From contig NC_134029.1 in assembly GCF_964204645.1 (NCBI RefSeq), forward strand, positions 21,384,950 to 21,448,949: a stretch of DNA of 64,000 nt, written 5' to 3'. Of this stretch, positions 8,242-61,229 are shown in pieces (the first letter of the stretch is position 1; every line of letters begins with the position of its first letter). The notes under the pieces are model-generated. The model was not told the origin of the DNA. It did not search any database and saw only the letters and a program-made list of their open reading frames with translations. The position numbers were made by a program, and so were the translations under genes. Origin of the DNA: Tubulanus polymorphus. Lineage: Eukaryota > Animalia > Nemertea.

Positions 8242-11200
8242 CTTTTCTTGTTGTTCTTGCATTTGCTTTAGGTAAATACTGCGTTTTTTATCCTTGCATC
8301 GCTTGTTCTGGAACCACACTCGTATAACGCGAGGACTTAGCGACGTCATTTCCACTAATTGTTCTTTCATTAAAGCGTCAGGTCTAGGATTAGCGTTATA
8401 ACAAGTTCGCAACGTATGAAGTTGTTTCTCATTAAGTACTGTTCGTACGCGAGTTGTTTTTTGTTCCTTTCTGGTCTTTTCTCGAGGCCGATCCCGTTCC
8501 CGTTCCGACATTTGTTCCGCACGACCTAATTAGGAAATAAATCATCAGTTAATCAGTTATCGATAATTCAAATTATTCATAGATACAAAAATAACGCGTG
8601 TTAAACCGCAACGAAATTGGATAAATGGATATTCAATATCCCAACTTTGGCATTCTTATTTGTCTAAATTCGTTGAAAGTTACGTTTGTCACTGCAAAAA
8701 TACGGCTAATACACTACTCTGAACTATTGCGTGTTTCTGATACCGCGCGATGTTTGTAACGCACAATCAATACGTTACAACCCCAAAGCAAATGACTTTT
8801 ATACCGTTTGATTTCCTCAAGACCTTTCTTTGCTTTGATTTCTCGATGTTAGATTCCGAGTCAAACGAATAAGTTACCTGTAGAAAAGTTACGTTAAAAA
8901 TGCTTTTCCTTGGGCTTATGTACGATAGATATATGTATCAACATGTGACGGAACATTTTTGAATAATCTTCAAATGACTGCGTTTTTTTCTGCACGAACA
9001 ACACGACCAAACGGTTAAACAGACGTTTGAAGACGAAAATATAAAAAATCAGCATACAAGAAACCGACTGCACTCGGTAAAAATATGAAAAGTGCTGTTG
9101 TGCTTGGGAGAACAGTTGGGTCCATTGTCATACGGAATAATAATTCGGCAAGGCGATTCAAAGGAGGTTTTTTTAGAAATCCGAGTTTGAATGCTCGCGA
9201 TGTGGAACAGGCCATCTGGACTGAATTTAAACCGCGCCACTGAAAATAGGACACATTCTACAACGTCATATCCGCCATAAACGAAAAGCTTAGTTTCGTA
9301 ATCAATAGTATAGACTTAATTTCAGCGTTTAATTGTATTTTGATCGTTAAAGCGTGTATTTTACATTTTGATTAATGCTGACAATAATAGCTGCGCGTTA
9401 CTTTTGAGTGCCACGTCAGCGTAATAAGTAAATAAACAAATATATATATATACTGGAAGTTACGTGAATTCGAAGGTAAAACGATAACTATTTGTTATTT
9501 TTTGCCCGATCGATTTTACGCCGAAGTCGTCGAATCGGCACAATAGTAAGATTGACGAATTCAACTGTATTGTGTTTCTATGAAAATCGGTCGCAACCGT
9601 TTCTCAACTAAATATAGACGCGGCAAATGAATAACGGGAAATAAAGTTCGCGTGCTTCTGCTGACGGAAAAAAAATGCGGCGCATAAGCGCGTGGCTATA
9701 TAAAGTTACTTTGCGCGGCTCTGAATTCGTGTAATTTTACATGCGAAACGATTAAAGTTTAGTACAAGCGGTGTCGAGTGTCGCGGCTGATTTATAGGTG
9801 ACGTGTCACATTGGAAAAGTCAACGCTTCAAAAACGGACTTTTAGCCTGCGGAGTTGAGTCGTTGAGTTGAGTATAATTACGTTAATACACGTACTGAGT
9901 ATAGTTGTGTCTTCGCGGTGCCCGTATATTGGCCAAATCATCGTTTTTTTGTGTTTAATTAAAAAATAGAGAAAATGAATTGATGAACTGCTGAAGGAAT
10001 ACACAGTGTATATTATATTGCTATTGGAATCAGGTTATGATTCGAGCTTCTTTCCAAATTCATAAGACGCACAGACTAGTACATGATTGTTGAATAATCT
10101 ATAAGACCCACTTTTTATCTTGGAGCCAGAATTATCTAGTCCTAAGTCAGATGTCAAGTTCAATTGGCAATTGTGGAACTCGGTTTCAGCACGTTTTGAT
10201 GATGGCTTGTACGATCGAGAGATTGACAGTTTGATGAAGAATGCCCGTCAGCTAAAGTCAACTTTTAATCGTTAAATAACAACAGGTTTTTCGTGGTTTT
10301 TTTTCATCATACATATTCTAGGGCTGCAAATAACGATTACAACACAGCCTATACTGTTTATGCCTGAAGAAATTAAACATGTGCAATTTGCGAAATCATA
10401 CTCCAAAACCCTATAGTTCTGACAAACCAATGATCGGGGAATAATAAGAATATGGTCGAGAATCGAAGCTTTAGTTGAGAAAAACCCTTTTCTATACAAA
10501 GTCAGTGTAGCCTATATGCACCAGAAAACTATTCCAGGCAGGAGCCTTCCTCTGTTTGAAATGGCCGTACCACGGGTGGTACAGTAATATATATTTTGGT
10601 TTGTAGTTCATGTGTATCGGAGTTTAGAACACATTCGCGATTTTATTTGTAAATCCCGTTGGGAAATCGACTGTTATTCTATTTATATTGGTTTATAGAC
10701 AATTTCTAACTATAAGCGATCAGGTTTACGCGTGCCCGAGGGAGCTAAGTATCCGATTTTATTATACATTATCGTGGGCTCGTTTTAATTCGTCTTCAAC
10801 GGTTAGAAAAATGAGTATCTGCATTGAAAAAATATTTTGAAAGGGTGTATTTATCGGTTGACTCATTTCCGAAATAAGAAAAAACTTGCACTAACGTATG
10901 CGTACTGGTAAAGGGCCAGGGGAGATAATTCAAAAATGATTAAATTTTCTGAAAACTATTTGAATAAAACAAAGGAATAGTCAATTGGCTTGGATCTTGT
11001 TTCAAGTAATATTCCGATCGAGTTTCTATTGCCGTTTGGAGCTAAATACAACGTTTTAAAGTAATTTCATCGATTCGTTCTTGCGCAGTTCAATTCGGAG
11101 CGCGTAGATCCGATCGTGTTCGGGACTTTCCGCCAAACCCCGAGCAGGAAGCCCCGAGAAACGATGCATCACTTCAACAGACGGCCGACCGAGTCATCAT

Positions 11201-14200
11201 CGCCGCATGATGATGATGATGATATGATCAATCATAAATCTAGCAATTAAACGAATCCCAGCGGAGAGACCTTCAGTGCATCGGTGGTCGAGCGGGGCTT
11301 TCGGAAATTTCATTATTCACCCGACAAACGGCTCGAATAATCTTCCATAATCTCTTGTTTACGGCGGATGGTCGGCGTGAATGTACATGAATAAGTAATT
11401 ATCTTTCGTAGCGAGTTTCAATTCAATAAACGGTCAATTACTGAATATAATATCATATCACAAGAGGTTTAATAATCCCCCACAGTAGCAAGCATTTAAC
11501 GATTCTGCGGGGGAAAGTTTAATATGCTGAACGTTTTGATCTGGTGACTTATCGAAAACCTGGATCGGAACTGCCGATAACCAGGGACACGAACTTGATA
11601 ACCATAACCTTTCATTTTGGTGTTCCGAGACACCTTTCAGAGAATTTCATATAGCATCACAATTCTAAGGAAGACCAATGATCATTGCAGGGGCACAAAG
11701 CCATGCATAGACACGCGGGTTCATAGAAACATTTATGACATTTCAATATTAGATTTGCGGAAAAAAGGCAACCCGTGAAACGACCGTTTTTTAACAAGAT
11801 TTCCGGGGAACTCAGTTTCTGGAGCTGTTGTGATGACGTCATCAGGTTTTGGTACGGACGAGTTTGCGCACCTGTCGTATATTTCGTCTGCTTGTCGCAC
11901 TAAACCAACAAACTGTGTAGTGTCGTCTGCCAGAATAATCGATCAACGAACAAGAAAACTTCATCAATCGGTTTCTTTCATCTCAATATACTCGCGTACC
12001 CGTTTTCACATCATCATGAAATTATTGCATATGCAATGATATTATGATATTTAAGCTCGGAATATTTTTTGTCTTCGATCTTTTGAATTCGTGATTAGTA
12101 TTCAAATCACATATATCTAGTTAAGAAATAGGGGCTAAACGATTCGATGCCTCCTTGGCGTTTGTTTTCATGGCTATGTTATGAATGTTTCGTCCTCACC
12201 ACGGATGTTTAAGGTACCAGAATTTACATTTTTATGATATATCATGATCCAGGGATCTAAGTGTAAATGAAGAGATTTTACTTGAAAATGATTTTACCTG
12301 CTAATTGTAAACCCTGGCCTGCTAATTTATTTTCTCCATTATTGTTGTTGTTTACCGGGCTGCCGTTGCTGTTTTCCAGTGAGCCGGCCCTTTCGACGAC
12401 CTCGTGGTCCGCTTTACAAAATAAACCGTCTTCCCGTAACGCGAACTCATCGCCCGGTATTAACTGGCGACTACAGGCCACGCAGCGGAAACAGTCAATA
12501 TGAAATATTTTATTCCTGGCGCGCATCACAAAGTCGCTCTTACTAAATCCGATAAAGCATTTTGTACACTTTTGACCGAACAGCCTGAAATGAGAAAAAA
12601 ACACAAGCGATCGAATAGCGTGCATGTATTTGGGCATGTATTATAGATTTTCGGTTCGAGGTGACATCACGTATGGGCGACAGAGCCGACGACAACATAT
12701 TGTTGGACGCTTTGCATTCTCTTAAAATTCCGAACGTATACGATGTTCGTGGTTCATATCAAAAAATACCCAATCAATCGCTTGCCGGTTCAAACTGGTG
12801 GATGATAGTTTGGACAGGAACTGAAATTTCCAGTTACGTTCAAGATCAAACCCCCGGTTTCGTTCCCGGGAACTATGGTCGATTTGTGACACTGACAATT
12901 CAAAACAAATAAAAATTAATCAAGCAATTAGATAAATAAGAGGAGTTATTTCCAACTTCAAGATCAAAATAGTCGGCGACAAGTCAAGTCAATACATATA
13001 TAGAGTAAAGAGATATCAAAATTTTGTCATTGTCTCATACTTTCGAGTGATGTTTTGTGTTCATCAACCGAACTTTTTAGATTTAAAGCTGTTCAAAATG
13101 ATGGAAATTGGAAACGACCGGGCTGGTGATAACCTCTACACCGAGGGTCGCTTCGTATCAACATCGCGCGGTTTAACTGGTGCCAAAAGTCGGGTATAAA
13201 CACAGTCAGTACATCTCGTCTACAGATCAGACTGTGCGCGTATTCGCTTCAGATGAATCCATACCGAGATAGATTCCATAAATGTATATTAACCAAGGCA
13301 GTCTTTCCAACCGAAAGACTATCTCGTCGATGACGGCTATAAGGATCCAGTTCCACAGTTGTGAGTTAGCGTTGAACTCAGACCTAGAATCAGTTCATTT
13401 TCAGTCATTTCGAGTCAAATCTTACTCGAACTGTGGAACTGGGTCCAGCAGACTTAATAAACTCGTCTGCAATGGCACAATATGCAAATCATTTTTTTTC
13501 TAAAATCTTATGTTTATATATGCGTTATATTGTGCAAAACAGCGAAGAAAATTTCTTCGGCAATTCTCAGAAATGACGATATGGGCAGAAAAAGGGAAAT
13601 CGCGAAAACCTGCAGTAAATAATAAGGGCGACCGCAGATCTGGAGACTTTTGAAAAGATGAGGACACCTGCGCTGACAATAAGTGATGGTTTGTGCTCTT
13701 ATGAGGTTTCTACTATTTGTTCAATTGTGAAAAGGAATGGATTTCATTCAGTTTGAAAAGAAATCGTGAAACACGAAAAGAATAGACTTCAGCCTCCCGT
13801 TGGGATTAGGCCACTTTCGCCTCTGAACACACGTCCCATACAACAATCGAATTCACAATCACTGTTGGAACCCACGGGATGTCTACAAAACTGAAGCCAT
13901 ATACAATCAAAACATTTTCAATGATCAAGTCCGCGTGTCTTTTCTTGATCGATCATTGTGGCCAAAAATCAGCATCCCCATTATGCTAAGATTTGCCTTC
14001 TTCGAGGAATATATCATGAGACAAGAGCGCATATGAAAATGTACAACCATTGCTTTTTATAAGTTATACGCAGGCAATGTAGACGATTTCTACCCTAGAT
14101 TCAACTCCATAAACATCATGGAAATGTAGTGAAATGTTAAGTTTTGTCACATCGATTCGCGCGTTTACGACGATATCGATATTCCCCTTATGAGGAGCAG

Positions 14201-24495: not shown

Positions 24496-24622
24496 CTACT
24501 GATGCTGTTGCTGTAAATGATGCGAAGAATGATGCTGTTGCTGCAAATGATGATGATGAGTAAGATGATGAGGGTGATGTTGTAAATATCGAGATTGTTC
24601 CACTAACAGTTGCTCAGGTGTT

Positions 24623-24655
<33 letters not shown>

Positions 24656-27600
24656 TGTTGATGATGCTGTGAAGCGTTCAGAGTTGATGCGTATGAAGTA
24701 ATCGGAGATGTTAACGTGCCCGTATTAGACTGCTGAGTCGTACCCGACTGATGGGGCTGCTGTAACATCCTCTGCTGCTGCTGCTGCTGCTGCTGCGGAT
24801 GAGAGCCAATGAGATGCTGCTGCTGCTGCTGCTGCTGCTGCACGATATTCGTGTTCTGGCGAGCCGGAGCGCTGTATAACGAGGAATTGTGTCCATACAT
24901 AGACGTAGTGAGCGCTAGCATTTCTGTGAGCATCGGTTGCGGAATGTATTTCTGCTGCTGCTGCTGCTGTGTGTCGGATTGCGGAGTCGATTGCGCTCCG
25001 GTGGTTGTCGTGAATTGCGGATGAGTCATACACTGAATCGTTCGTTCGTAATTCGACTGCGGTAGTGGGGTACGCTGGTACACGATATCCGATATGACCT
25101 GCTCCATACCGACGGCCGCCAGATTCGTCAAATGCGACAAATCCGCCTGGTTACCGACGGCGATCTGCGGCGTCGATTCGCGATGCAACGGCGTCTGCGA
25201 CGAAGCGCGCTCCGATTCCGCCGCCGATTCGAGTTGATCCGTGAATCCGCCGCTGAGAGCGATGCTACGCGCGACGATATCCATACACGGCGCCTGCGGC
25301 AGCAATAACTGATTGCTGACCTTCGCGATCTCGCGCGAAATCGCGTCGCTAACGTCGCGTTCCGTTTCCTCCTCCGTTCGCTCGTTCCGCTCCTCATCGA
25401 TGACCTTGACCTTACGCGCGGGCGGCATGTTCTGATCGGTGCCGTGAACGGACTTCATGTGGCGGCGTAGATTGTACTGACGATTGAAGCTGCTGCCGCA
25501 CCAGCACAGGTGCGGTTTCAGCTGGCTGTGACATGTTTGATGGCGGCTGAGCGCGTTGGGTGTTTTGAACGCTTGCGGACATTTCGGACACTGGAAATTT
25601 CTCGTGTTCGTATGACGGTACAGAATGTGAGTCTCGAGCGTTTTCTTCGTGTGGAACGCCGAGCCGCACAACTCGCAGATGAAATTGCGTTCGGAGAAAT
25701 GTCGCAGGATGTGACGTTTCAGATTGGTGTTTTCGCGACATTTATAATCGCAATGTGGACATTGATGAGGTCGCTCGTCCGTATGAGTCTTCATGTGTCT
25801 TTGCAGAGCATATTTTCTATAAAGGAATAAACAAAACGATATAAATCTTAAGTGGTTTACCCTTACATACTCATCTCCCAGATTTGGCCAAACCCTACCT
25901 GATTAGCCCGATGTACATGGGGCAGATTAGATGTGGCACATTTTTAGCTATTTTAATCAGAAACCACAATTTATCATAGCCAAAGTTATTCCTTTTATAG
26001 CCATCCGAGAAATATTTCTCAGCAAAATATTTCTCTGCAATTTCTCAGGCAACCTGATTGGCACTGCACCTAACCTGCACCAATCGATTTGAATCCTTGA
26101 TGAGGAAGAAGGATGATTGATGCATATTTTCTGTACATTGCACTTCTATCAAGGCAAGGGCCTTTACATTTTTTAACTTTCATTGGTCAGAGTCCAGGTC
26201 CAATAAGTTTTACTGTAGCAGTTATTGAATACGAATTACCTGAAATAAGCTTGTCCACACAGAGCACACAAGTGCGTCCGTTCTTTGCCTCGCTGTCCGG
26301 TTTTGACGAGATGTGAATTTGTCATTTCGTGTTTCTTGTACGCTTTTATTGTCCGGAAAAACATATCACATATTTCGCATTTTACCGGTCGTTCACCTGA
26401 AAATAAAAGACATGAGTACCACTAAAATATGTGTCATTCATTGGATCAATAAGTACATAGGGTTCTTACAGCTCAGGGAATCAAAACTTGACTGATATTA
26501 ATTTCAGTATTTCAGAGTTAATGAGCAAAAGCCACAGAAACGTTTCTCTGATGAAGTTTAGTCAACGCTTCCAACACTGTCAGAATTCTTACTTACTGTC
26601 AGAATTGACTGTAATACCACCAACTGTGAGTTTTGCTCATTAACAATGAATCCAAAATTCTATATATATTTCTCTGGCCCTTGTGACCATAAATTCCCTG
26701 ATTAAACTATAGATATCCTCTGTATCGGCTGTTTTTTCTCAAAGGATTCCTTACGTGCAACTTACTCATCACCAACAAGAACGACAAGACACCAAAAATT
26801 GAAATCCCAGACTTATCAAAAAGGTTTTTGAACTCCCTGACTTCCCTGATCTGTAACAGAAACCTGGACCCAGTTGCTGCGAAGTTGGTAAAAGATAACC
26901 AGTGGATAAATACTATAGAAACAATGAACTATTAATTGTCACTTCGTCAACTATCCACTGGTTTAACCAACTTTTGAGTTAACTAGTCCCAGATGATAGA
27001 GGTAAGTGTTCAATATGTACCTGAGTGAATTTTCAAGTGTTTTTCCAGCAGTTTAGGACGGAAGAATTTCTGATCGCATTCCGTGCATCCATATTTCAGC
27101 TCGTCGGGGTGCGCGTCGTGTACGTGATCACGTAACGCCGATTTACTCGCGAACGCCTCGCCGCAGAACGCGCACAAAGGATCGTGCACGCGTTTATGCT
27201 GCACGTACAGCGCTCGCGTGTCGAACGTTTTGTCGCATTGTTTACACGTGTTTCGCGACGAGCCGCGTTTATGCGACGTCACGTGAGCGTAATACTCCTC
27301 TTTATCGGCGATGAACTCGCCGCAGTGTAGACAAACGAACCGACCCTCGGCGTGTATCTTATAATGCTTGTAAAGCGTCAATTTGCGACTGAAGAATTTC
27401 GGCTGCGAGCAATAAACGCAGAAATACTTCGTCGACTGGACCTGATGTTTTAGACGCACGTGGCGACGTAGTTGACTCGTCATCAAGAATTTCGCCGGGC
27501 ACTCGTCGCACGCATGGTTTTTCGAGTTCGTTTTTTTGCATAGTTCCAGGTGAAATTCGTAGAGCGCCGCGTTCGCGAATTCCGACCGACACAATCGACA

Positions 27601-29183
27601 ACAGACGCCGTCTGCGCCGTGCGACGATAGGTGGCGCTTGAACGTGCGCGCGTGATGGAAGACCTCGTCGCACGCTCGACAACGGTGTTCGACGTATTTA
27701 CGTTTCGTCGTTATCGCGGCGACGCGAACTTTTTTCGCGGAAGCGCTTTTCGAATACGAAGCGATATTTTCGTCGGTTTCGGAAACGATTTGAATTCTTC
27801 GCGATTTTCTCTTCAGTTTCAATTTTATCGGTTGAACGATATCCGGCGGTTCGGAATTTTTGACGTCGCAATTTTCGGATCGAGCATCCGTTCCATTACC
27901 GTGTTCAACCTTATCGGAAGGCGCCGAATTTCCGCCGATATATTTTCTATGTATATTTTTATTAGCACCTTTAAGACTTTTTCTCGTTTTCGGCGGTTCA
28001 GCATCGGAACTCGCCTCATCAGGTGAATCGACGTAATTAATGGCTTTTTTCGACCGCGTAGATCGCGTATTCATCGATTCGGGCGACTTTCGCGATTTTC
28101 GTTTATTTCTTTTAGGTTGATTTTTCACATTTTCTGTATCAGCAGTAGAATTAGTATCATCGATATACAACGGACCCAGCAATAACTCATCAGTGGCAGG
28201 TACAGCGGTTGCCCGTGTTGCAGGTACAGCGGTTGCCTCTGTAGCAGGCACAGCAGACGCCTCTATAATGAATGAATCGGTATCACCCTCAGCATCCTCC
28301 AGCTGTTGTTCATACGTTTCCGAACTCATAAAATCTATGAGGTTCTCGATCAAACTTTTCAAAGCTTCAATCGAATGCCTGCGTTCGTCATCATCCATTT
28401 CCTTGAACATAATTTGCAACTCATCAATCTGAAAAAATAAATGAATCGTGATTACTAATTAGATAATAATTCAATATCTAATAATATTCTATCATTTAAT
28501 TAATTCTTTTTAGAGGGTTAAGGGGTTGTTTTAAAGCTAGGGTTAGTGCTATATGAAGTAGGCCTACATTCAGTAAAATTCAACGAGCCTCGGTGGTCTA
28601 GTGGAATGACGCTACACTAGCAATATACTGGTCCGGGTTCATTATTGCTCTATTTGTTCTATTTTCTTTATCGCTGTTTTCAACTATTTTCTTGAATTTT
28701 CTAATAAGTTGCACACCTCAGTGCGCATGAGCAGTGTAAATTGGCCAATCAGAATGAGTTATCAGCAAAAAAGTGTTAACAGAAATAATGCCGCTTCAGC
28801 GAAATATCATCTGCCTTTTATTTCATCAATAATTTATCAATAAATTTTTCGGAATATTTACACTTGAGCCCAGTACCAAATTCCATTTTTCTAAAAAAAA
28901 TATAGGCCCTACAATATGTTTTTTATATAACTAAAGGTCTAAACCATGCTAGCCCTATCTATTTATCACTGACAAATTGGCTCATATTCTTTAATGCAAA
29001 TAATTTGATTTCCTGGAATTTTTCATGCATGGATGAATAAATGAAGTTTCAAAGTTAAGCGGGGTAGGAACGCTGCTGGCGAGAAGAGGATATCGCTGGG
29101 ATTGATAACCAGGATGAACGACGAACCTTCTGGAAAAAAGACTTCAATTTCGGCTTGAATTTTGTGCCCCAAAATTCAGCCAT
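24496..29183 (-). CDS. Multi-C2H2 zinc-finger protein (~980 aa, ~14 fingers) with C-terminal polyQ/polyH low-complexity tail
   Basis: Exons 29183-29127 (MAEFWGTKFKPKLKSFFQK, least certain), 28428-27021, 26396-26240, 25816-24496. Phases 0/1/2 join in frame (IHS|GERPVKCEIC; AYFR|KYALQRHMKTH). Repeated CxxC-x12-HxxxH fingers with HSGERP/HTDERP-type linkers. Confidence 0.9.
24510..24970 (-). repeat. Coding (CAG)n and (CAT)n trinucleotide tracts
   Basis: Several (CTG)n runs on the + strand encode Q6-Q13 tracts and His-rich runs. Confidence 0.9.
26518..26643 (+). repeat. Dispersed repeat copy 2 with inverted ends
   Basis: Ends TTAATGAGCAAAAGCCACAG ... CTGTGAGTTTTGCTCATTAA; core shared with 21374-21455. 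Confidence 0.75.
26864..26992. mobile_element. MITE-like foldback element
   Basis: CTGGACCCAGTT...AAGTTGGT..AACCAGTGGATA pairs with TATCCACTGGTTTAACCAACTT...AACTAGTCCCAG. Confidence 0.65.
28192..28264 (-). repeat. 24-bp coding tandem repeat (x3) in zinc-finger gene
   Basis: Encodes EASAVPAT-EATAVPAT-RATAVPAT. Confidence 0.8.
28587..28650 (+). mobile_element. Degenerate tRNA-derived SINE head or tRNA pseudogene fragment
   Basis: Pol III A-box-like TGGTCTAGTGG followed at tRNA spacing by a decayed B-box (GGGTTCATT); no intact cloverleaf. Confidence 0.45.
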
Positions 29184-34100: not shown

Positions 34101-36685
34101 AAAACAATACATGGAAGAAACAAACAATGCAGGGAAACAAGAGAGTAGCCAGAAACATGTTTCAAAACATTTCCTCTCAGTGTCATATGTGCATTTACGA
34201 GAAACATAGTTTTGGGTAAGAAAATTTGCGAGGTCAAATTTTTTTCATTCAGTATTTTTCTGAGTTTCCCTGTGTCAAGCTTGCGTTAAGCTTAAAGTGC
34301 AAGTAAATGAAAATCATGACAAAACTGATTCCCATCCAGTCCGCACTTCTTATAGATTATAGACATTACCTAATGTTGATCGATTGAGTGTAGTGAGATA
34401 ACAGTGGTATCCGAACAATGATATCAAACTAATGGAAAACATCACAGCAGCGAAAAATAAAAACAAAATGTGGAACTTTTCCAGATGATCCTTCAAACCA
34501 AACTGCAATGACAAAGGACCGATAATCTTTATTGGATGACCAGTTCCTATATACCGATATATTTATCAGAATGAATGGGTAAACTCACCTGCCAGAATTC
34601 TATGAAGTATTTTAGTGATGTACAGCTGACAAATAAACAGTAAATGAACGAATAGCCCAAAAACAGCACGAAAAACTTGTAGTTGGTAAAACATACGCAG
34701 TTATTCACCCTGAAATGATAAGTATGTCAAGTGATTTTTAAAGTTTGATTTCAGAATTTCATCATGGCTTGGCACTAGATTTCACATTTCTGAAACTAAT
34801 ACAAATGAAATCTTACCATGGACAGTGGTGATCCATTTTCAACACACATCTTGAGAAATAGACAAGAAAAACACTCAAAATCAAGCAGAAATTGATGGAA
34901 ATACAGCATTTGGTCTGTTATAATGCCACTGTTGGGACCAATGAAAAACACGGCGTTAAAACCAATAAAAAATACATGGTATTTTCATTGAATTTGAGTT
35001 AGATGGAGCAAAGTTGTTTTCCATTAAATGCTGGCATCAAGCGAGTAATTGAAAAGGATGGTATTATAACGGACTTTGACTGTAATTGGAATAAATTCTG
35101 TTTGTAATAAATCTCAGGTTTGGTTGTCGGACTAGTACTTACACTCCACATACAGAGCAATGATGCGCACGATCTGGTTTCAAACATTTACACTTCTCAC
35201 AATATCTATAAGCTGAAAAATGCAAAATCATCATACTAAAAGCAGCTTTCATTTTCCCTGTGAAATGTCAGAAACAAGATCTAAGTATCGAATATAATCA
35301 AGTTACATAAATTGTCATATTATCTGAAGACAATAGATAAGAAGCCTGGGTCCAGTTTCATGAAAAAGTTTAAGTTTGAAATGTTGCAATTTAAGTTAAC
35401 TTTTTCATGAAACTGGGCATTGGTCGGATATCAAAAGCCGATTATCGTTTATCAAAAATATGACTATAAGTTCCATTTGGCTAGACTGAGATTGTCAATG
35501 ATTTACCTCCTGTTATAGTCCGACACTGAATTGGTAAATTTCGACCGTATTTTGCTAGTATACTACGTTGGTTGTCATCGCTTTCCTCATTGTCAAATTT
35601 CTCGGCGTCTTCCGGAGACAAGAAGAACTGAAATATGGAAAAGATACGCATAAATATTTCTACGTAGACGACAGCATTCGTTGATAAACTCTCTTTTAAA
35701 CTGTATTCACCGACCTGCCGAGGTACTGTGCCGATTTTGGTAAATATAGCTTTTCCGTAAGACCAGAAAAACATGAACAACAAAGGATGGTAGACCAGTA
35801 AATATAGCACTGAAAGGTTAGAACATAATAAAATTGAATATCTGAAAAACAAACAAATCATATAAAGCTAACACAATGCCTTGTTCCGTTTATTACAGAT
35901 ATGCCCTTTTTCTAGGCCCTTGAATTTGTAAAAGTTGTTTCGTCTATTTGATTAGAATTTTTTTCCTTTCCAGGGCATCCACCCCCAACTATTGGTACAG
36001 GGTTAAGACTCAGCGATGTGCTATCAATTATGTAGGACAGGTCGGCAAATTGGTAAATCTTATACATACAATCTACAAATATCTTTATAAATATATGATT
36101 ACTATCACTATTAACACAAAAGCAAGTTAGAATTTTTAGTGGACATTACACCATTGTCACCATGGTTACAATGCAATTGTCACTAGCCTAGGGCATTTAT
36201 TTATCCACCGATTTGTACTCCTTAACCTTGAGAAAGTGATCCCAAGTCTTGAGACATACCCACACTATTACAATTACTTACCCTTTTCTACTGTGTTAGG
36301 TACAGTTTCTGAAAAATAAAATAGTTCAAAGTGAAAATACAAAAAACCAACAACACTAACAGCTCAAGTCCAAGATACCACTACTCAATAGTGGTACTCT
36401 ATTCAGAGAAAGTCAAGTGGGAAGCGGAGTGAGTAATCTAGGAGCTAGTTTAACTAAAGTTGGAGCCTGAATAAGCAATAAAAGACTACTCGTCCCGCCC
36501 GCATCATCGGGATCAGCAGGACAGAAAATGAGATTTTTTACGGCAAAAAAGCCGAACCTATAATACTCACTTATACACAGTACTACGACATAAGCATAAT
36601 ACGACCATAGAACAACCGCAGTTATAAATACCACTGGAAACCATTTGATTACACCCAAACATCCCCGGACAATCTGTGGTGCCAT
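31164..36685 (-). CDS. ZDHHC2: DHHC palmitoyltransferase of the ZDHHC2/15/20 subfamily (~362 aa)
   Basis: Exons 36685-36571, 36308-36282, 35809-35715, 35627-35507, 35212-35143 ([19 protein letters not shown]), 34849-34817 ([11 protein letters not shown]), 34709-34589, 34502-34370 (NRSTLE, TTxE-type), 34001-33875 (SFRAP...NFQEIFG..W.LP), 32905-32822, 31795-31692, 31222-31164. All phases are consistent. The N-terminus [21 protein letters not shown] is typical of the subfamily; the symbol stands for the subfamily, not a 1:1 ortholog. Confidence 0.93.
33222..33319. mobile_element. Tc1/mariner-pogo type MITE (CAGTAAACCTC TIR, TA flanks)
   Basis: TA|CAGTAAACCTC ... GAGGTTTACTG|TA; relatives at 63443-63551 and 61807-61913. 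Confidence 0.7.
33497..33545. repeat. (GAT)n microsatellite
   Basis: Imperfect GAT run read directly. Confidence 0.85.
35346..35418. mobile_element. Short MITE-like foldback
   Basis: 19-bp perfect inverted repeat CCAGTTTCATGAAAAAGTT (35352-35370) / AACTTTTTCATGAAACTGG (35398-35416). Confidence 0.65.
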
Positions 36686-47800: not shown

Positions 47801-48330
47801 TTGTAAATTTCACAATAAAAACATTCAAAATGATAATCAATGTCCACATACAACATGACAAAGGTATACACGTTCGTATGGGGTTTAAAGCCCCTGTGAG
47901 GGAAGGATTTCTCAATAAAGATGTTAGAGGGACCTATGCCCAGTATCAGAGAACCAGACACACGTTTCTCTGCTTACCAATTTTCCTCATCATCTTCATT
48001 CTGAAAACTGCAATCGACATCGATCAAATCCACCGATTCTAACGACGTCGAGTCGGTCGTCGTATCCTGCTTCACATTTTTACAATCGTTATTTAACGTA
48101 TATTTCGGTTTAATTATCTGTTTGTCGATGATATCCAACGAGGTGTTCTGATTTTCGAAATCTGACAGAATTGACAGATCCTGCTGCTGCTGTCTGGTCG
48201 TCGTATTGTTGACATTATTATCAGTTTGTTTATTCCGCAGGATTTCGTTCTGGCGTTCTAGTTTTTTCACTAACTCCTGTAGTTTTTTCACCTCAGATTC
48301 TGGATCAAGTGTAGCATCGTATCCATCCAT
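38899..48330 (-). CDS. SLAIN2: SLAIN motif-containing microtubule plus-end tracking protein (~537 aa)
   Basis: Exons 48330-47978 (EVKKLQELVKKLERQNEILR coiled coil), 47232-47081 (WLYKSPK..W....EHPSPE), 46506-46366, 43514-43329 (DVQTLAKMQEE), 42322-42281 (SLRQ), 42024-41920, 41553-41404, 40880-40547 (RRSLPNL; GIP SxIP-like motifs), 39306-39232, 38974-38899 (DDSWKEGCF*, matching the SLAIN C-terminal WxDGCY/F). Phases are consistent. Probably co-orthologous to SLAIN1/2. Confidence 0.92.
39511..39730 (+). mobile_element. PIF/Harbinger (Tourist-like) MITE, copy 1
   Basis: TIRs GGCTAAA..ATGATACCTTGTTTCTCC ... GGAGAAACCAGGTATCAATTTTTTTTAGCC, with a TAA target-site duplication on both sides (39508-39510, 39731-39733). 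Confidence 0.8.
41673..41882 (-). mobile_element. PIF/Harbinger (Tourist-like) MITE, copy 2, inverted relative to copy 1
   Basis: Same TIRs and a TTA duplication on both sides (41670-41672, 41883-41885). The interior is the reverse complement of copy 1 (e.g. GCCTATCTACCCTGTACAT vs ATGTATAGGGTAGATAGGC). Confidence 0.8.
42376..42618. mobile_element. MITE-like element with CAGGGTCCA TIRs
   Basis: TA|CAGGGTCCATTCTAAG ... CTTAGATTGGACCCTG|TA; internal repeated CCGGGACAAG/CCGGACAAG motif. Confidence 0.7.
46669..46797. mobile_element. MITE-like element
   Basis: 17-bp perfect TIR GGGGCCAGTTCCATAGT ... ACTATGGAACTGGCCCC. Confidence 0.75.
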
Positions 48331-48404
48331 TAGATCGCGTTTACCATTAAAATTCGACGCATAAATCCAAAAATAAATCTCTAAATTCACTCATTTGACA
48401 TCAA

Positions 48405-49265: not shown

Positions 49266-50383
49266 GTGCGACGCAGAACGATGAACAGTGCTGCGTTAGA
49301 TCCCGCCAGTTGACAACGATAGATTCAATTGCCAAGTAAAGATAGCCAGAAACGAGGGATTAACTACGATTCAACTAGGATTTATTTCTCATATAACCAC
49401 GCGACTGTTGATCATATCGAACGAGGTAAGTAATTTTTCGACGCGCAGAAATTGTTTTAAATGTTTTCCAGATGTTCCGTTTTGACACACACATATCGTA
49501 GCTGTATTCATTCTATTGAATAAAGGTAGCGTCCATCTTACACAGAAAATTGATTTATCGGTGCTGCGCATCATTATAATATTTACATGATATCATCGGC
49601 ATTGTGGCTTTACAGTCAGATATTTTGTTACGGTATCAATAGTCATTTTTCAATCTGCCCGTTTACAACAATCTTATCCTTCCAAATTACTCACTTCGGA
49701 GACATGGTATATCTACGTTGATCCATACTAAGTTCATTTTGACGAAAAATCCTTTATTGCCATAAAATACGTATTTGTGCATCACTTGTTTAGTTTCGTT
49801 TTGATAAATGGGATATATAAGGGTGGTTATTTTTGGCCGGGGTGTATACCATCACAAAATCCATTTTTAAGTTCGATGGGTCAGTGGCTGTTTGCAGCAA
49901 AATGTGTGAGCAATAATTTGTAATGTCATCTGATATGGGTGTCCATTAAAAAAAGATTCGAGTCGTTGAGGCTCCTCGATCTCAACCATCCATATAAACT
50001 CTGGTCGCTGCTGTAGTTATATACCATTAAAACTGTAGATAATTTTTGCTGTTCGATATATGATGAAATGTGATATGTACAATATCGAAATGGGGGGAGA
50101 CAGACACCCTGCTAAGTGATTATACAGCGGAAAAATACCAGATGTGACGATCCATTGTGGCTATTTAATCAGAGTAAATGGGTACTGACTCGAAAACCTG
50201 TAACGCTTTAACTCAGGCGCATCACGTAACAATCCGTATTCGATTCCCTTCCTGTTTGTCCAGGAAGGAATATGAGACTTAGAATATGAGACTTGATCAT
50301 AAACCTTGATTATATGAAAGATGCGCGGCTATTCGATGATAAAACTATGCTATGACATTTTCATGATGCATTTTCAGAGGACT

Positions 50384-53300
50384 ATGAGCGGGCAAAGCGC
50401 TCTGCGTATTTGGACGTGGATTTTTTGTTTGGTCTCCGCCGTCGGTGCCAAACAGAACAAAATTTTCGTTCAGATGCCAAATGTTCAACCGAAAGTGGTA
50501 AGTTTCAGCAGCTTACAGCCAGTATATTGTCCTCCTGTCGACCCCGCTACGACTTGAATACACTGCACACATGTCACTTGTTTTCATAACAGGTGTCTCA
50601 CTACATTGAATCTCATGTACATTATCTGAACAGGTGTCTGAAAGAAATATGAATTTTAAAAGAAATATACATAACATTATTTTTGCTTTTTTGATGGAGC
50701 TGTTTCCCCTATTCTGACGCCATTATTAAATAGAAATTAGATAGAAATTGTTGGTCTCGATAGAGGCCGTTGTTTAGGAGAGTTTGATGAACAATGACAT
50801 CATAAGTAAACATCTTAATTTCAATTATCAAGTTTGGTTTTGCAGTGAAATAGGTCGCTTCATAATTAGTCAGCAGTGAAAGCCAGCTAGGCGCGATGAC
50901 CAATTACCCTTAATATGTAAAGAAGACATCCTACTGATTACTAATCCATCACAAAAATTCATTTACTCATATAGATTAAGTTACAAATGTTTAATCATTT
51001 CGGAGGAACCATTTTCGGGGACACACTGTATTATAATGTTCACAAATTCGAATTTAAAAAAAAGTATATCTATTAGATTTTCTTGCCACAAAAATCTTAT
51101 CTAGGCAGTAAGCGAAATTCTCTCAGAGATCCTCTCACCCTGAGATCCTATTCACGCAATCTGATAAATTGATCGTGTTTTCCTCGGCCGAAAAGGACGG
51201 GTGCAACCGATGGATCTCACAAATGGATATTTGAGTAATTTTCAAAACGAATTACAAGATCTGTAGAATTTTATACGGAAATATGTATACAATTTCACGT
51301 AGATCAGTGTACAGCTGTGCTCTCCTTGCAGATACAGAAGATTTATGTTCAAAAAGGAACAATAAAAGCGATTTCAGTAGATACTCTACATAATGCGAGA
51401 AGATAAACTGAACTAAAAGAATATTTAGAATACATCATATCGGGATAATGTATATCGATGTATTTTTAGTATATCATTGACAACGTGACAAAAGGCACGG
51501 CAATATCATCGAAGCTGAGTGGGCGAATCGTGCCACGATTCTCTAACGACTGAGCTGACATTTTCTCGTATCACCGAGGAAAAAAACGGTCGCTATTGAA
51601 GAATAAACTAGGCCGAATTATATATTCTACGCGAATAAACCGATTATCATCTATTAAAACCAATCCTCTTAATAATCTTTTGAAATAGAGACTTCAAATT
51701 ACTTATTCATTCACCAGGCGGTTAAGTCATTTATCAATACAACGCCGGAATTATTAAACACTACTTCACGATGAAATTCTTGATGGAACACTCCGCGATG
51801 AAACGATTATACGGTACAATACACGACCAAAAAATAAAAAAGGATTTTTTTCGAGTTAAAGTTTAGAATACGTTGAAAATAAAATATAGCTTAAAGAAAA
51901 CCTTTCGGACTATTTTCATTTTCTGAATCGTGGGATTTTACAGTATTACATGTGATGAAAATGTTCCGCTTCCCCGGATGCACAAGCACTGGCGTGCGTT
52001 AAATTATGAGTTAACAATTGAAAATGAACTGATTCTAACTGAAATCCAACTGCACACTACCTACGAGCAATCATGATGATTGCTCGTAGACCCTGCCAAA
52101 CTGGGCATATTGGATACTTCAACATGCCACAGGTAGCAGGTCCTTGAATTGTTGATAATGGATGAATAGCTTCACACAAATATTGCTATAGATACGTAAT
52201 TAGATATTTATAACGTAATGAATTAATCCACGCTACAATGACGTTTCGACGTCGTTGCCATAGAAACAAGGTGCGCGAAAAGACGATGCTACAGCGTGGA
52301 GCAGACGTGGATACATTCTGTCACCTTATTACCGGGCATCAACGAATTTAATTATCACCGCTTTGAGAGAAATCCAAATTCCAGTAATCGGGATGTATAT
52401 ATGCGTCGCAGCACAAGTATCAATCCATTAAAACCTTGTCAATAAAGTTTCATTAATACATATATAATTCACACTTATCCATCGATCGATTTAACCTTGT
52501 TGACCTTAACCTTCGCCTGAATTGAAATTTCAGTTGAAGTGACAATCGATGAGATATCTTTGTTTTGTTCGTAGATGCCGTTTTCAATCAAATTTAAAAG
52601 TCAGATTTAATTTTGAAAGCATTCGTCTCTAACGCGCATCGAAATGTTGAGAGTCCTAAGCGTTTTTCTCGTATTTCGAGTATGCGGCGTTCCACCAGTC
52701 AGATAAAATTATATTCCTATCATCAATAATTCTGTAATGCGTTTTATGAACGTTGTTTCAGCATGATACATACATGTGTACTGCGATGAAAATGAACTCA
52801 ACTGAATATGTCGGTAGGTTTCAATACATCGATGATAATAACATCGATCCAATATCTTGTCAAATCATTTGTTTATTTTCTCCGATTCTTTTGAAATTTC
52901 GTAAATCAGTACGTTGAAGTATCTCATGATTACTCTATTATCTAGTGTCATTTACTCCGAAACAATCAAAACCACACACGGCGCATCACATGTTGTTATA
53001 TGGTTGCGAATCTCCAGGATTCAAAGATTCCTCATGGTAAGGAAATTACGCCATTTTCCTGTAACTATTTGCAGAAAAATTTTCCGAAGTCCTAAGACAA
53101 GAAATTGAAAGAAAATATGTTGAAAAACACAGAACAATTGTCTTCAAAATAATTTAGATTTAATTCATTGGATTCGATTTTTATTATTCAATCAGTGTAC
53201 CAATATCACGTTTAAATGGAAACAAACATTGAAATTCTGATTGATTTTCTAACCGTTTATACCAAAAAGCAAAGTCTTCGGATTCATAAGAAATTTTTTT

Positions 53301-56300
53301 GTCATTGATGTCATTCAGGGATTGCGGAGAAATGCATTCGGGTGATGGTAAAACCATGAGACAAGGCCCAACTTGTGCATCAGGAGCAAAGATCATTTAT
53401 GCCTGGGCAATGGAGGCGCCCAACCTTCAGCTACCGAAAGGTAATAGACCTCTCAGGAACCTAATCCAACCAGTCAATCTGATGTTTGAAACGCGTATAA
53501 GAATTGTTTTTTTAAATCTATATGTTCTTCTCAATTTCAGATGTCGGTTTTAAGATCGGCGGAGACAGTAAAATCAACTGGCTCGTTTTACAAATTCACT
53601 ACAAAGACGTAGATAGATTTGTCAGTAAGTCTTGAAATACTTCTCTCCTTTAAGACGATCTTTGAGACATGACTAAGTTGGTATTCACGATTTTTCCAAG
53701 TCACGTAGTCGGAAACTTTTAGTTGGATTATACCAAATTTATAGTTGATGCTATGTCTGAAATTGCCGTGCCGATCCTTTCTAATTACAGAGGGTGATAC
53801 GGATAATTCGGGATTAGAACTGCAACTCTCTCCGCAGCCGTAAGTTAAAATCTAATTAAATCGAGAGAAATGCATATTCATTTCTCCTGCGGGCGAAGAA
53901 CACGTTTCCACCACATCACTGCCAGTAATAGACCCGATAGCGCGGCGTATGACGAGTAGAGAATCAAATTAGATTCGATCCACGTCAAAAACTGCAATTC
54001 AAATAATACTTCATATCTCTTCTGCTACTTCATTTCGCAACGTAGGAAATCAATAGACTAGACGTATATGGCGTCCATACCTACATTATATTCATTTACG
54101 AAATCTTTCTAATTTTCTTACATCAAAAATATATATCGCTATGTATCATCTATATCAACTCTCCTGTGTAGAAAGCCTGTTATTAAATCAGTACACGATC
54201 GTTATATTTGCATGATAGAACACCTAAGAGTGCTGGAATTTATCTAATGTCCACAGTGGGGTCAATCGCCCCCAGGAGTACAGGTAAAATAACCACAACA
54301 TAATAACTGCGAACATGTATCTACGTTTATGTCTTTTTTGTGTAATATTAGTGTTTATGCATGAGGTATCTAAGAATACCTTGGTATTACCCGTCCCTCA
54401 GATGTAATCAAACACCTTCTAACTAGCTGTGGTAGTTTTTTGTCTATTTGTAAGAAGTCATTTTCAAATGCATAAAACATAATCCCACTACCAAAATTAC
54501 AACACAAAGCGTACGGTATACAAGAATTCAAATGCATAATTGAAAACCTAAAATGTCGGGCTAAAAAGTCGGGCTATATCTAAAACATGAAACATCGATA
54601 TTAGAACAGACATTAATAAAATAGTCAGCTGCATCTAAATAGGTTCATCATTGATATAGATCAAAATGAAATCAATTAGATATTAAACCAATGCGATATC
54701 CTATAGGAAAACTGACTCCACTGGTTACCGAGCACGTTGTCACAGTAATAGATATGGTCACGTAACTAAGGGTCGAATGAAAGCACCCAAAAATGTACAG
54801 AAATTATATCTTATCACAGATATACTCATGGCGTACATACATTTCATATCCATCATCTTGCGAATCATTTTTCTGTTTTATTCGTAACAGAACTCCGATG
54901 GTTGGTGGAATATACGTGATGTCCACCGGGGGAACGATAGCCCCTGAAAGTACCGGTATGGCCATGTGTTAACTGGGCTTTCAGTATAGATATTGTCAAC
55001 ACTTATATTGCAGCAGCATGAAATTACTTTGCCTGATGTGCAAATTATGGATTAGGGACAAATTTAGACACCATGGACAACTAATGATAAGCCCTCATAA
55101 AGCTAAAGCTAACCTTATTCACAGCGACAGAAAATAGGTACTTTTTATGAACCAACGGGGTATATATACTCATTGATATTTCAGTACTCCTAATGGTGCC
55201 GGTGTCATAGCAATGGGAACAAGCGGGGCGATCTCTGCTACATCAATTGGTATAATTTTAGAAAATCCGTTTCCCCTACAGTTTCTTTAGATATGTGAAC
55301 TGAAATTTGGGTGACGGACGTGAAATTGAATACTTTGGCAATCCGTTTCATGGTAAACGGGCTTCAGAACTCATATCTTGACTAAAATGCCTTTCTTTTC
55401 TAAAAACCTGAAAAATCCATACATGTTTGGATTCGTGGGGACGAATTCGCTTTGCTGTGTTGTGACCTATTCCCTTCAAGATTCCTCTAGGGTGACTGTT
55501 GTTTTGTTTTTCTTAATTGTTTTGTCGATCATACTGGTCCGTAGATATTCGAATGATCGTTATTTCACGTATTTTCATTCCTGGATATTTTTTGTCGTGA
55601 TGATATTCAATGTCTATTAATTTTGACTATTGTCTTGTCGTGTCAGAAATCACGTGTGTCCAGGATGTACACTTTTTCTATTTTTTGTGTTGTAAATCTG
55701 GAAATCTAAAATAAACAACTGCATGATTTCTCAAATATAGATAAACTGATACACGCAGATGTACTCATACGATTACCCCGATAATTATTATCTTTAGTTT
55801 ACATGGAGACGGCATGCAAATACAAAGACAAAATCGACATCTATCCATTTGCGTACAGGACCCATGCGCACAGTCACGGTAAGCGCATTATCCACATTTG
55901 ACGATCAAACATGAAATACACATTCATTGCAACATTTTTGGTAATTTGCTATCGCGTGAGAATCGATAATGAGAGAGAGAGAGTTCTCTATGATTATAGG
56001 CGTGGTCAATTCTGGATATCGAATACGTGATGGAAAATGGACGGAGATAGGTCGGAAATCACCGCAACAACCTCAGGTCGCTATCGTCTATAATCTGCCA
56101 CATCTCACCTCGTGTTTAAGAGTGATTAACGTGTTGATATTAACTCGAATAATTCATATGATTACAGATGTTTTATAAAGTGACCAATCCAGGCATGGAT
56201 GTGAAGAAAGGCGATATCTTAGTAAGTTCATGAATACTTGATAGACCATGGACGTTTAGATACGTCCATGGATGCTGTATTAATAAGACGAATGATTTCA

Positions 56301-57001
56301 TCGAGTAATTTACACTCATTCATTCTCATTTTAGGCGGCGAGATGCACCATGGTAAATAAAGATAACGAGGTTGTACAAATTGGGTAAGGAATAGAAATA
56401 TCGGATGATTCAGAACGGCAATATCGATGATATATCGTGCCAATTAGCAGATTCGTGCGCAATTTACATGAAACGTTTCTTTTTTACTTCCTCATCCTCC
56501 AGAGCACAAATCATTCTAGATTAGATTAGATAACCGTTTCGTATACAGCTTTTATGTATCGGCCTATAATGCTAATTGCATCTGTTCATTTTCAGTTCAA
56601 CGGCTAAAGATGAAATGTGTAACTTCTACATTATGTATTGGACACACGGGGATCATTTGCCTAGCGTGACTAACTGCTGGACGTTCGGACCGCCGCAGTG
56701 GAACTGGGGAAACTTCGAGGACCAGAGAGCCATCAATTTGAAAGCCGAACCGAAGACGGCCAGTACGGATCCGAATAGTCACCAGTCGTACAAACAGACC
56801 TCTCTATTGAAACAGATAATCAAGACGGCCGGTGCCCAGCAGACGACCGGCGATAACTCGGCTTACGAGTACTACAACGAGGTTCGTCCCGAAGATGAGC
56901 AGGAGATGCGCGATAGGATTCTCGCTGAACAATACGACCAACGATTCGAACCGGACGACGAGTATTCATTCCTCGGACAGTCAGATGCTTGGAACTACTA
57001 A
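50384..57001 (+). CDS. PHM: Peptidylglycine alpha-hydroxylating monooxygenase (monofunctional soluble PHM, ~414 aa)
   Basis: Exons 50384-50497 (signal peptide), 52762-52813, 52946-53036 (AHHMLLYGC), 53319-53440 (IIYAWAMEAP), 53541-53624 (LVLQIHY), 53791-53839, one of three 65-nt alternatives, 55798-55878 (FAYRTHAHSHG), 56000-56076 (SPQQPQ), 56168-56221 (MFY), 56335-56384 (AARCTM), 56596-57001 (DEMCNFYIMY). All CuH and CuM ligands are present; there is no PAL or transmembrane domain. Confidence 0.95.
54219..54283 (+). CDS. PHM: PHM alternative exon a (TPKSAGIYLMSTVGSIAPRST)
   Basis: 65 nt, AG/GT flanks, phase 2 in and phase 1 out, open frame; homologous to copies b and c. Confidence 0.85.
54891..54955 (+). 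CDS. PHM: PHM alternative exon b (TPMVGGIYVMSTGGTIAPEST)
   Basis: 65 nt, good polypyrimidine tract plus CAG, donor GTATGG, same phases, open frame. Confidence 0.88.
55185..55249 (+). CDS. PHM: PHM alternative exon c (TPNGAGVIAMGTSGAISATSI)
   Basis: 65 nt, TTTCAG acceptor, donor GTATAA, same phases, open frame. Confidence 0.82.
55677..55701 (+). promoter_or_regulatory. Putative intronic RNA docking site for mutually exclusive splicing
   Basis: TCTATTTTTTGTGTTGTAAATCTGG is complementary to both 54491-54509 and 55117-55138. Confidence 0.65.
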
Positions 57002-58988: not shown

Positions 58989-61229
58989 ATGGCCGCATCC
59001 CGATCCGTGTTAAGCCGGGCGTTATTGAGAAATTTCAGAAATTTTCAGGTAAACAGCCATGTTAACAAGACCAAACTTTTTGATGCCATGATAAGCATAT
59101 TCTTAATGCTGCAAATCGTAAATCTTACAAAAATTGTACATCTAAAGCCCCAAGTTGTTGTATCATACTGTCTCCATTCTCAGTATTCTGTATTCTAAAC
59201 TTAAAGCAGGTTGGGTTCGAATCCCAGATATATTCATTATATACATTGCGTAATGAATATTTCGTCTTCTATTTAGGGTACCGCATTAATAAATCAAACG
59301 AGATTTCGTTCGTCGCGCCCGTTGAATACTGTGATATTGTTTGTACCGCAACAGGAAGCTTGGATAATTGAAAGATTCGGTAAATATCATCGTTTATTAG
59401 AACCGGTAGGTAACCCGCTATTTCCGTGTATTTTCCATAATCATTCGTTATAGCATGTTGATGCTGTATTTGATCTTCTTAACTTTAGGGTTTGAATATC
59501 TGTATACCGATCATAGACACTATTAAATACGTGCAAAGCTTGAAAGAAATAGCAATAGATATACCCGAGCAAAGCGCAATTACTACTGGTAAGGGTGAAA
59601 CAATTTTTCAATAGAGTTGACATATTGAAACTAACTGTCTAGAGAATTGGTAACATTTGTTTTTGACTTTCTTACAGATAACGTGACCCTCAATATTGAT
59701 GGAGTTTTGTACCTAAAAGTAAAAGATCCGTATAAGGTAAATAAATGAATCATTCGAACTGGTCCATATTGTGGGTTTTACCATCGAGTGAGTGGTTCGC
59801 TTACTGGTTTTATCACCTATAGAAACATATTGAAGTTTTCAATTCATTTCTGCAGGCGAGTTACGGAGTTGAAGATGCCGAATACGCTATTACACAACTC
59901 GCTCAAACCACGATGCGATCAGAAATCGGTAAAATTAGTCTCGACCACGTATTCAGAGAGAGAGAATCGCTTAACATCGCTATTGTCGGTGAGAATTGTT
60001 CGTTGGACTTAACATCCTTTTTCCTTAACGGCTTAAATCATCATATCGATAATGTTGATGTATATTTCTATTTCAGATGCGATAAACAAAGCTTCTGAAG
60101 CTTGGGGAATCAACTGTATGCGTTATGAAATCCGTAAGCAAATATTCCGCCCCGTTAAAACCGAACAGCAGTCGTCCGTCGGCAGGCCTGTAGCATTTGT
60201 TTCCTATTTTAGGTGATATGTCGCTGCCGGCAAGAATTCAGGAAGCCATGCAGATGCAGGTGGAAGCTGACCGAAAGAAAAGAGCAGCGATTCTCGAATC
60301 GGAAGGTATATTTCGATTGAGAGTACATAGACTTTCGACGAAGTTGATGAAGATTCTCGATGAAATTGTTTTTTCGATTTCAGGTATTCGAACTGCCGAT
60401 ATCAACGTGGCGGAAGGTAAAAAACAAGCGACGATTTTAGCTTCCGAAGCTTTCAAGACGGAGCAAATCAATCAAGCTGAAGGTAGGAAACTAATCTACA
60501 AAATATAAAGTCAATTCTCTGGCAAAAGAACGATGTCTTATGGTAATCATTTTAATTTACAATGGGCTAAATTTTTGTGATCAGAAAAACGAGGGTGGTG
60601 GACAATCAAGGGTGACAGGCTGTAACTGAAACCAGATAGTTTCAGATAGTCTATGTTTTGCTAAAAGCTATAGTCCAATTCAGATTGGATCTTAATAAGT
60701 TGTGGAACAGTGACACGATTAGAACCGTTGGAACCGGTTTAGAACCGTCGCCCTATATTAAATGTACTGTAATTTTCTTTTTAAAGGTGAAGCTGAAGCG
60801 CTTAAGAACATAGCGAACGCACGCGCTGAAGCAATCAAAACTATAGCGAAATCCATCTCTGAACAGGTAATGGTCTGCTTTGAATTATCTTAGTTTTGAC
60901 CATTTACTTGAAAAATTATGTACAGTATTACTGCATACATTGATTGTTACTTGTATCATTTTACAGGATGGGCCGAATGCAGTTTCATTGAACATAGCCG
61001 AGAAGTATATCGAAGCATTTGGCAAATTGGCGAAAGAAGGCAACACTGTATTGCTACCATCAAACACTGGCGATATCAGCTCAATGGTAACACAGGTACA
61101 GTATATTCAGATTCGGTCCTGAAACTATTCTCCGTTAGGGATTTTGTACTCATAAATTTGATAACTTTTCAGGCCCTGTCGATTTACAAAACTGTCGGCG
61201 TAGAAAAATCCAACAAAGATGAATCATGA
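58989..61229 (+). CDS. STOML2: Stomatin-like protein 2, mitochondrial (~331 aa)
   Basis: Exons 58989-59048 (Arg/Ser-rich presequence), 59277-59405 (FVPQQEAWIIERFGKY), 59489-59588, 59678-59736 (DNVTLNIDGVLY), 59856-59988 (ASYGVED..AQTTMRSEIG), 60077-60133, 60213-60305 (MQMQVEADRKKRA), 60384-60482, 60787-60866, 60967-61095 (AEKYIEAFGKLAK), 61173-61229. All phases are consistent. Confidence 0.96.

Follow-up and report, generated by a model that had tools for sequence, protein, structure and literature searches.

The PHM gene of Tubulanus polymorphus carries three homologous 65-nt copies of one exon (A, B and C), each preceded by AG and followed by GT. Our preferred reading, to which we assign a probability of about 0.6, is that these form a cluster of homologous mutually exclusive exons (MXEs) that supplies three used, functionally tuned PHM isoforms. 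Under it, three old copies in tandem of one exon, which encodes the inter-domain hinge and the first strand of the CuM domain, would be alternatives for splicing, with likely one copy in each productive mRNA. The three resulting enzymes are predicted to differ in their preference for peptides or in the motion of their domains. Throughout, the window is the whole 64-kb stretch of DNA that was analysed.

Gene identity and structure

By its sequence, the gene is a monofunctional PHM (a copper type II ascorbate-dependent monooxygenase) with predicted peptidyl-glycine hydroxylation activity. The last exon, used as a query, matched a single protein at 100% identity, PHM isoform X3 of Tubulanus polymorphus, whose cluster holds three RefSeq members of 414 aa each. 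Gene models that include exon B, A or C match RefSeq isoforms X1, X2 and X3, respectively, letter for letter, so the trio is already in public annotation. All three isoforms pass the Pfam cut-offs for Cu2_monooxygen and Cu2_monoox_C, and the Pfam search found no PAL domain or other family in them. In the alignment to 1OPM (rat PHMcc reference structures: 1OPM, 1PHM and 8DSL), the CuH ligands H107/H108/H172, the CuM ligands H242/H244/M314 and the substrate residues R240/N316/Y318 (roles as in PMC12164859) are all present and lie outside the cassette, and each single-copy form keeps all six copper ligands. The predicted structure of isoform B (mean pLDDT 85.8) has rat PHM structures as its best Foldseek matches (E 1.6e-32). 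The hydrophobic N-terminus encoded by the first coding exon is likely a signal peptide.

Table 1. Coding exons of the PHM gene and a candidate intronic stem (positions within the window)
Feature	Position	Strand	Evidence
First coding exon, ATG at 50384	50378..50497	+	Spliced contig of run X2; model equals RefSeq proteins
Constitutive exon	52762..52813	+	Joints in run X2; RefSeq-matching model
Constitutive exon with CuH His-His pair (rat H107/H108)	52946..53036	+	Contigs, rat alignment, model
Constitutive exon	53319..53440	+	Spliced contigs, RefSeq-matching model
Constitutive exon with third CuH ligand (rat H172)	53541..53624	+	Contigs, rat alignment, model
Constitutive exon before cassette, last CuH-domain strand	53791..53839	+	Joints in run X2; predicted strand E162-168
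Alternative exon A (RefSeq isoform X2, XP_074650132.1)	54219..54283	+	Model; none of its joints seen in contigs
Alternative exon B (RefSeq isoform X1, XP_074650130.1)	54891..54955	+	Joints on both sides in run X2
Alternative exon C (RefSeq isoform X3, XP_074650133.1)	55185..55249	+	Model; none of its joints seen in contigs
Constitutive exon after cassette, equivalents of rat R240/H242/H244	55798..55878	+	Contigs, alignment, model
Constitutive exon holding the skip-all premature stop (56030)	56000..56076	+	Contigs, model
Constitutive exon	56168..56221	+	Spliced contigs, RefSeq-matching model
Constitutive exon	56335..56384	+	Spliced contigs, RefSeq-matching model
Last coding exon, equivalents of CuM Met (rat M314), N316 and Y318, stop	56596..57001	+	Contigs, alignment, model
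Candidate intronic stem looping out exon A	53923-53951 with 54546-54582 (approx.)	+	-25.4 kcal/mol

Upstream of the coding exons, a likely non-coding first exon of PHM occurs at 49320-49425, with a good donor right after 49425. A contig of run X2 has ~107 letters upstream of 50376 that lie beyond the compared stretch, in line with this putative non-coding exon. A minus-strand gene, presumably SLAIN-like, begins ~1 kb upstream of PHM (ORF 47974-48390, without a Pfam match), and the two genes may be arranged head to head. The large PHM intron contains fragments of multi-copy repeats (50800-51135 and 51950-52100), where depth in run X1 reaches 341 and many loose ends occur.

Three copies and one reading frame

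The coordinates and peptides of the three stop-free exons agree with the original prediction, and the borders it drew for the two flanking exons are borne out by spliced contigs. Each copy translates into a 21-residue segment (residues 172-192), and a gene model with any single copy yields 414 aa. With no copy, the model ends after 207 aa at a stop at 56030; with two or three copies it ends after 200-201 aa, the stop always falling within the second copy, and productive joint inclusion is thus ruled out by frame. It had been predicted that 0, 2 or 3 copies would break the frame, and the early stops in the full gene model, with one copy giving the enzyme, agree. The premature stops lie 150-363 nt upstream of the last junction (150 nt in the form that skips all copies, here skip-all), and zero- and multi-copy mRNAs would likely be removed by nonsense-mediated decay. 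Early stops before the last junction combined with such decay point to the reading frame, and not to U12 incompatibility or steric block, as what enforces exclusivity.

Pairwise nucleotide identity among the copies is 31-44 of 65. Counting both strands, the window has 115 stop-free AG-65nt-GT segments, to which we applied a segment profile built from 118 PHM homologues. Positive scores were confined to A (40.9), C (29.1) and B (16.6); the next best candidate reached -27.0, and no fourth copy was found among the 115 candidates in the window. Exon A is closest to the family consensus, and exon C retains the conserved Ala, Gly, Val, Gly, Thr and Gly positions. The score of exon B falls below those of all 118 homologues, whose minimum is 29.8.

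Divergence and selection

Pairwise pS is near saturation (0.73, 0.68 and 0.75), against pN values of 0.19 for A-B, 0.42 for A-C and 0.44 for B-C. With length, frame and AG/GT also kept, the copies look selected, as originally proposed. For the 100 nt of intron next to each copy, alignment scores mostly do not exceed those of shuffles (8 to 161 of 200 shuffles reached the score in six tests). We simulated neutral drift by substitutions only, starting from exon A rather than from the ancestor, with 20000 trials per distance. Copies that kept splice sites, an open frame and a B-level score numbered 14, 0 and 0 of 20000 at d = 0.5, 0.9 and 1.8, which argues that all copies were constrained for most of their history; a recent silencing of one would still be compatible with this. 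Among the differences listed for run X1, one is non-synonymous in C, none falls in A or B, and three are synonymous in constitutive exons, a pattern that is uninformative on selection.

Splicing in public sequencing runs

Contigs from five public runs (X1-X5) were placed on the whole gene for runs X1, X2, X4 and X5 and on 53700-55330 for run X3. None of the runs is recorded as RNA, and X5 was only guessed to be. Runs X1, X4 and X5 have no spliced joints over the whole gene, nor does X3 over its narrower stretch; X5, from which a single unrelated 35-letter piece was placed, is uninformative on expression. Run X2 has 12 GT..AG joints, nine constitutive and three at the cassette, and as the only run with spliced joints it most likely holds transcripts. 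Besides the joint 53624>53791, the exon ahead of the cassette is joined by 53839>54891, which together with 54955>55798 includes exon B (word depth 11.1), and by 53839>55798, which skips all copies (15.1, contig word depth not being an inclusion level). Joints between cassette copies were not seen in the spliced contigs. The three cassette joints have 29-30 letters on each side, just under the 31-letter bridging threshold. When run X2 was placed without the downstream exon, the loose end behind 53839 consisted of 30 letters that are the start of the 55798 exon, indicating a true skip of A, B and C rather than an unplaced exon.

Inclusion in RNA is therefore not strictly one copy. The skip-all form is non-productive, so exclusivity holds for protein and not for RNA: the claim that only one copy per mRNA gives protein stands in its frame logic, whereas the transcripts themselves also include a form without any copy. 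That skip-all is about as prominent as B, as far as depth can say without measuring inclusion, is unlike what would be predicted for a tightly regulated switch.

Joints into exon A or C were absent from the contigs of runs X1-X5, from which rare variants drop out. Assemblers collapse equal-length bubbles, and A, B and C would be such; with rare variants dropped as well, the missing joints are weak evidence either way. The putative use of A and C is indicated by their RefSeq models. When residues 125-235 were searched for shorter relatives or spliced fragments, five matches at 38-55% identity came up, none from Tubulanus polymorphus. The predicted trio of isoforms is thus complete in RefSeq and seen spliced for B, while direct joints of A and C were not seen. 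Under our preferred reading, splicing factors would favour one copy by cell type, and A and C would be used in other tissues or stages.

An alternative that we consider improbable is that B is the working exon and that A, C or both are recently silenced relics or noise-spliced, with RefSeq models derived from trace reads or homology-based prediction. Joints seen for B only would fit this, as would the weakest donor match, in exon C (4/9), the poorest pyrimidine tract, in exon A (0.55), the candidate stem that would loop out A, and the haplotype that carries an Ala>Ser change in C. However, A is the copy nearest to the family consensus, C keeps its conserved positions, RefSeq lists all three isoforms, and the drift simulation excludes long neutral decay, though not recent silencing. 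Exon B is spliced despite having the lowest profile score, and divergence in this cassette is thus no sign of decay.

Splice mechanism

The introns around the cassette are 379, 607, 229 and 548 nt long. Three known means of enforcing exclusive choice were considered, of which U12/U2 gating and steric block were rejected. The donors are ordinary GT sites without the minor-class consensus, which speaks against U12/U2 gating. Steric block is described for distances of <50 nt from donor to branch point (PMC5740500), and the introns here are 229-607 nt. For a Dscam-type docking-site and selector mechanism, dock scores are not above those of shuffles: the best shared 3' dock (55678-55701) was equalled by 7 of 25 shuffles and the best shared 5' dock by 15 of 25. 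The stem around exon A was matched by one of 80 shuffles as low as -25.4 kcal/mol, a result chosen post hoc among six statistics.

The pyrimidine tract of exon B carries a 7-nt indel polymorphism (54880-54886), with the AG kept in both alleles. The deletion is present in an intronic contig of run X2, and the same-sample runs X3 and X4 have contigs that start at 54887; sample S2 looks heterozygous at this site. Skip-all may then be allele-specific, and more broadly it may be a leak, a regulated off-state or the product of one allele. Under the regulated option, skipping of all copies could serve as an off-state of the gene. It is very improbable, in our estimate, that the skip-all form alone reflects an allele with a weaker B acceptor, or a processed DNA copy, and not regulation. 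The indel lies where such an allele would need it, in the pattern expected of a heterozygous site, and the skip:B depths are near 1:1, but a T-rich tract and the AG persist in both alleles; a processed copy is unlikely given that runs X1, X4 and, over its narrower stretch, X3 are without spliced joints.

The cassette segment in relatives

From 20 other PHM clusters we compared the members of near-full length; short fragments and two multi-domain records were set aside. Among the differences listed, an isoform swap confined to the cassette segment occurs in one of the 20, that of Lineus longissimus, where isoforms X1 and X2 differ at 12 of 21 positions, all within residues 172-192 and with the borders of the Tubulanus exon; this swap is known from protein models alone. 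No such swap was found in the molluscs, Lingula, arthropods and amphioxus among the cluster members compared, and none of 149 further proteins has tandem copies of the segment within one protein. Tubulanus and Lineus belong to different classes, Palaeonemertea and Pilidiophora. In a tree of the 21-residue segment none of the 14 branches is starred, A and B are grouped at 88, and AU tests rejected no grouping (p 0.38, 0.23 and 0.28), which allows both a shared and an independent origin of the Tubulanus and Lineus swaps. The likely origin of exons A and B, which share 14 of 21 residues and 44 of 65 nt, is within the Tubulanus lineage.

A different segment, the one with the CuM methionine (rat M314, N316 and Y318), has two homologous versions among the RefSeq isoforms of Lineus, Haliotis and Daphnia, as seen in proteins only. 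In Lineus it distinguishes X1 from X3 (P0123 and P0124) over residues 284-334, internally and with a shared tail, whereas in Haliotis (P0029/P0034, P0134/P0136 and P0028/P0131) and Daphnia (P0191/P0192 and other pairs) the swap is apparently terminal. These proteins suggest a second, wider duplicated-exon swap in invertebrate PHM. In Tubulanus the last coding exon, which holds the Met314 equivalent, is single-copy, with no second copy in the window. Equal-length isoforms of Haliotis asinina (P0029/P0133 and P0034/P0135) differ by a single residue, Phe or Tyr at 196, which closely follows the cassette segment and may reflect a recent duplication of the exon after it. In oyster and Dreissena (P0137 and P0180), records of 773 and 812 aa cluster with two different PHM types, which suggests tandem PHM genes or two-domain models in bivalves.

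Position in the enzyme and possible function

Residue 172 corresponds to rat Gln198 in the rat PHM alignment (offset 44, checked on H107/H108/H172), which places the inter-domain hinge loop (198-201) and the first CuM-domain strand within the exon. The loop joins the two copper domains, which rotate about Ile201 to give Cu-Cu distances of ~4.5, 11 and 14 Å (PMC12164859), and hinge motion has been described for the first strand of the M domain (PMC9064607). In the isoform B model the cassette forms the linker, strand E174-183 and the following loop, and the exon sits at the start of Pfam Cu2_monoox_C.

At the Ile201 position A, B and C have Ser, Val and Gly, and Lineus has Thr and Arg; this exchange of the pivot residue is predicted to shift the open-closed balance. 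Positions 198-201 as a whole are variable across the 118 homologues. The next residue, Ala202, is invariant in all 118 and is Gly in exon B. The Leu206 position is occupied by Leu in 112 of the 118, and by Leu, Val and Ala in exons A, B and C, respectively; the Met208 position is Ser, Ser and Gly. Leu206 and Met208 presumably form part of the wall of the pocket that takes the penultimate side chain of the substrate, as in the Prigge structures, and a smaller side chain at 206 is predicted to widen this pocket. A wider set of 149 proteins yielded 69 of these segments, seven with Val at 206, two with Ala at 206 and two with Gly at 202, so such changes are tolerated in nature.

These tolerated residues, together with the free variation of 198-201, would also suit a reading in which every copy serves as the spliced exon of one cell type or another and the main role of the cassette is to set the amount of enzyme, through inclusion versus skip-to-decay, the residue differences being largely neutral. 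The skip-all word depth, similar to that of B, and a stop 150 nt before the last junction favour it as well. Nonetheless, B and C alter positions that vary little or not at all in the close family (Ala202 and Leu206), the same segment is swapped in Lineus, and the variable residues of MXEs generally cluster at functional sites (PMC7954323); we hold this reading to be rather unlikely.

Functional tuning of the isoforms remains the reading we prefer. The usual view of PHM is of a single enzyme of broad specificity per gene. If the isoforms do differ, an animal would be able to select, through splicing, the peptides that a given cell amidates or the rate at which it does so. Somewhat tentatively, and with the odds in our view against it, the cassette could be a four-state switch on the catalytic hinge (Leu-, Val- or Ala-pocket, or off) for cell-type, peptide-selective amidation, in a family where invertebrates would have repeatedly duplicated two substrate-facing exons, namely the cassette in nemerteans and, in Lineus, abalones and water fleas, the exon with Met314. 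The switch would then sit exactly on the hinge, whose motion from open to closed is the step of PHM catalysis under dispute, and three isoforms that are alike in all else would amount to a series of hinge mutants provided by nature. Current mechanistic work ties the 198-201 loop and the Ile201 pivot to an open-to-closed catalytic cycle (PMC12164859). Proteins identical but for 21 residues (three here, five variants with Lineus) offer a ready test of the role of the hinge.

Comparison with known systems

In kind, the PHM cassette is common; its presence in this gene is what we found undescribed. Like the homologous MXEs of Lam et al. 2021 (PMC7954323) and Hatje et al. 2017 (PMC5740500), it has copies of the same length that encode the same protein segment, with variable residues near a functional site. 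Like 377 (60%) of the human clusters analysed by Hatje et al. 2017, it has an exon length that is no multiple of three. Unlike in those systems, the zero-copy form is also spliced here, without a U12 or steric lock.

Exons 6a/6e of coq-2 (Tan et al. 2020, PMC7434440) are also an exon swap in an invertebrate enzyme, there shown to change substrate use; coq-2 is, however, a different enzyme with two splice forms tested for function, whereas PHM has three copies with tuning predicted. The PAM zymogen of Lymnaea stagnalis (four PHM domains and one PAL) likewise provides several PHM cores per gene, by whole-domain duplication and proteolytic release (PMC6669573) rather than by splicing of a 21-residue exon. 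Rat PAM has up to seven splice isoforms (PMC6669573) and shares its fold and copper ligands with Tubulanus PHM. Its isoforms alter linkers and cleavage sites outside the catalytic core (PMC6669573), in contrast to the swap of the hinge and first CuM strand in Tubulanus, whose gene also differs from rat PAM in being a monofunctional PHM without a PAL domain.

The original prediction took an exclusive cassette in the PHM core to be new. No published description was found by title or start of abstract, a search that left subscription journals largely outside its scope and did not cover supplements with genome-wide exon lists, and the main text of Lam et al. 2021 makes no mention of PHM (PMC7954323). 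The novelty is nevertheless partial, as the isoforms are in RefSeq and the MXE class is described and frequent (PMC7954323; PMC5740500). With the kind well known in invertebrate genes and the isoforms annotated, the surprise is limited.

Other genes in the window

LIM and homeodomain exons at 8227-12640 on the minus strand resemble, as we would assume, an Islet-type LIM-homeobox gene. Two long C2H2 zinc-finger ORFs, one with Gln/His-rich tracts, occur at 24496-28458, also on the minus strand. Two ORF pieces are without a Pfam match: one at 35481-35867 (minus strand), which we take to be DHHC palmitoyltransferase-like, and one at 60194-60508 (plus strand), presumably stomatin-like.
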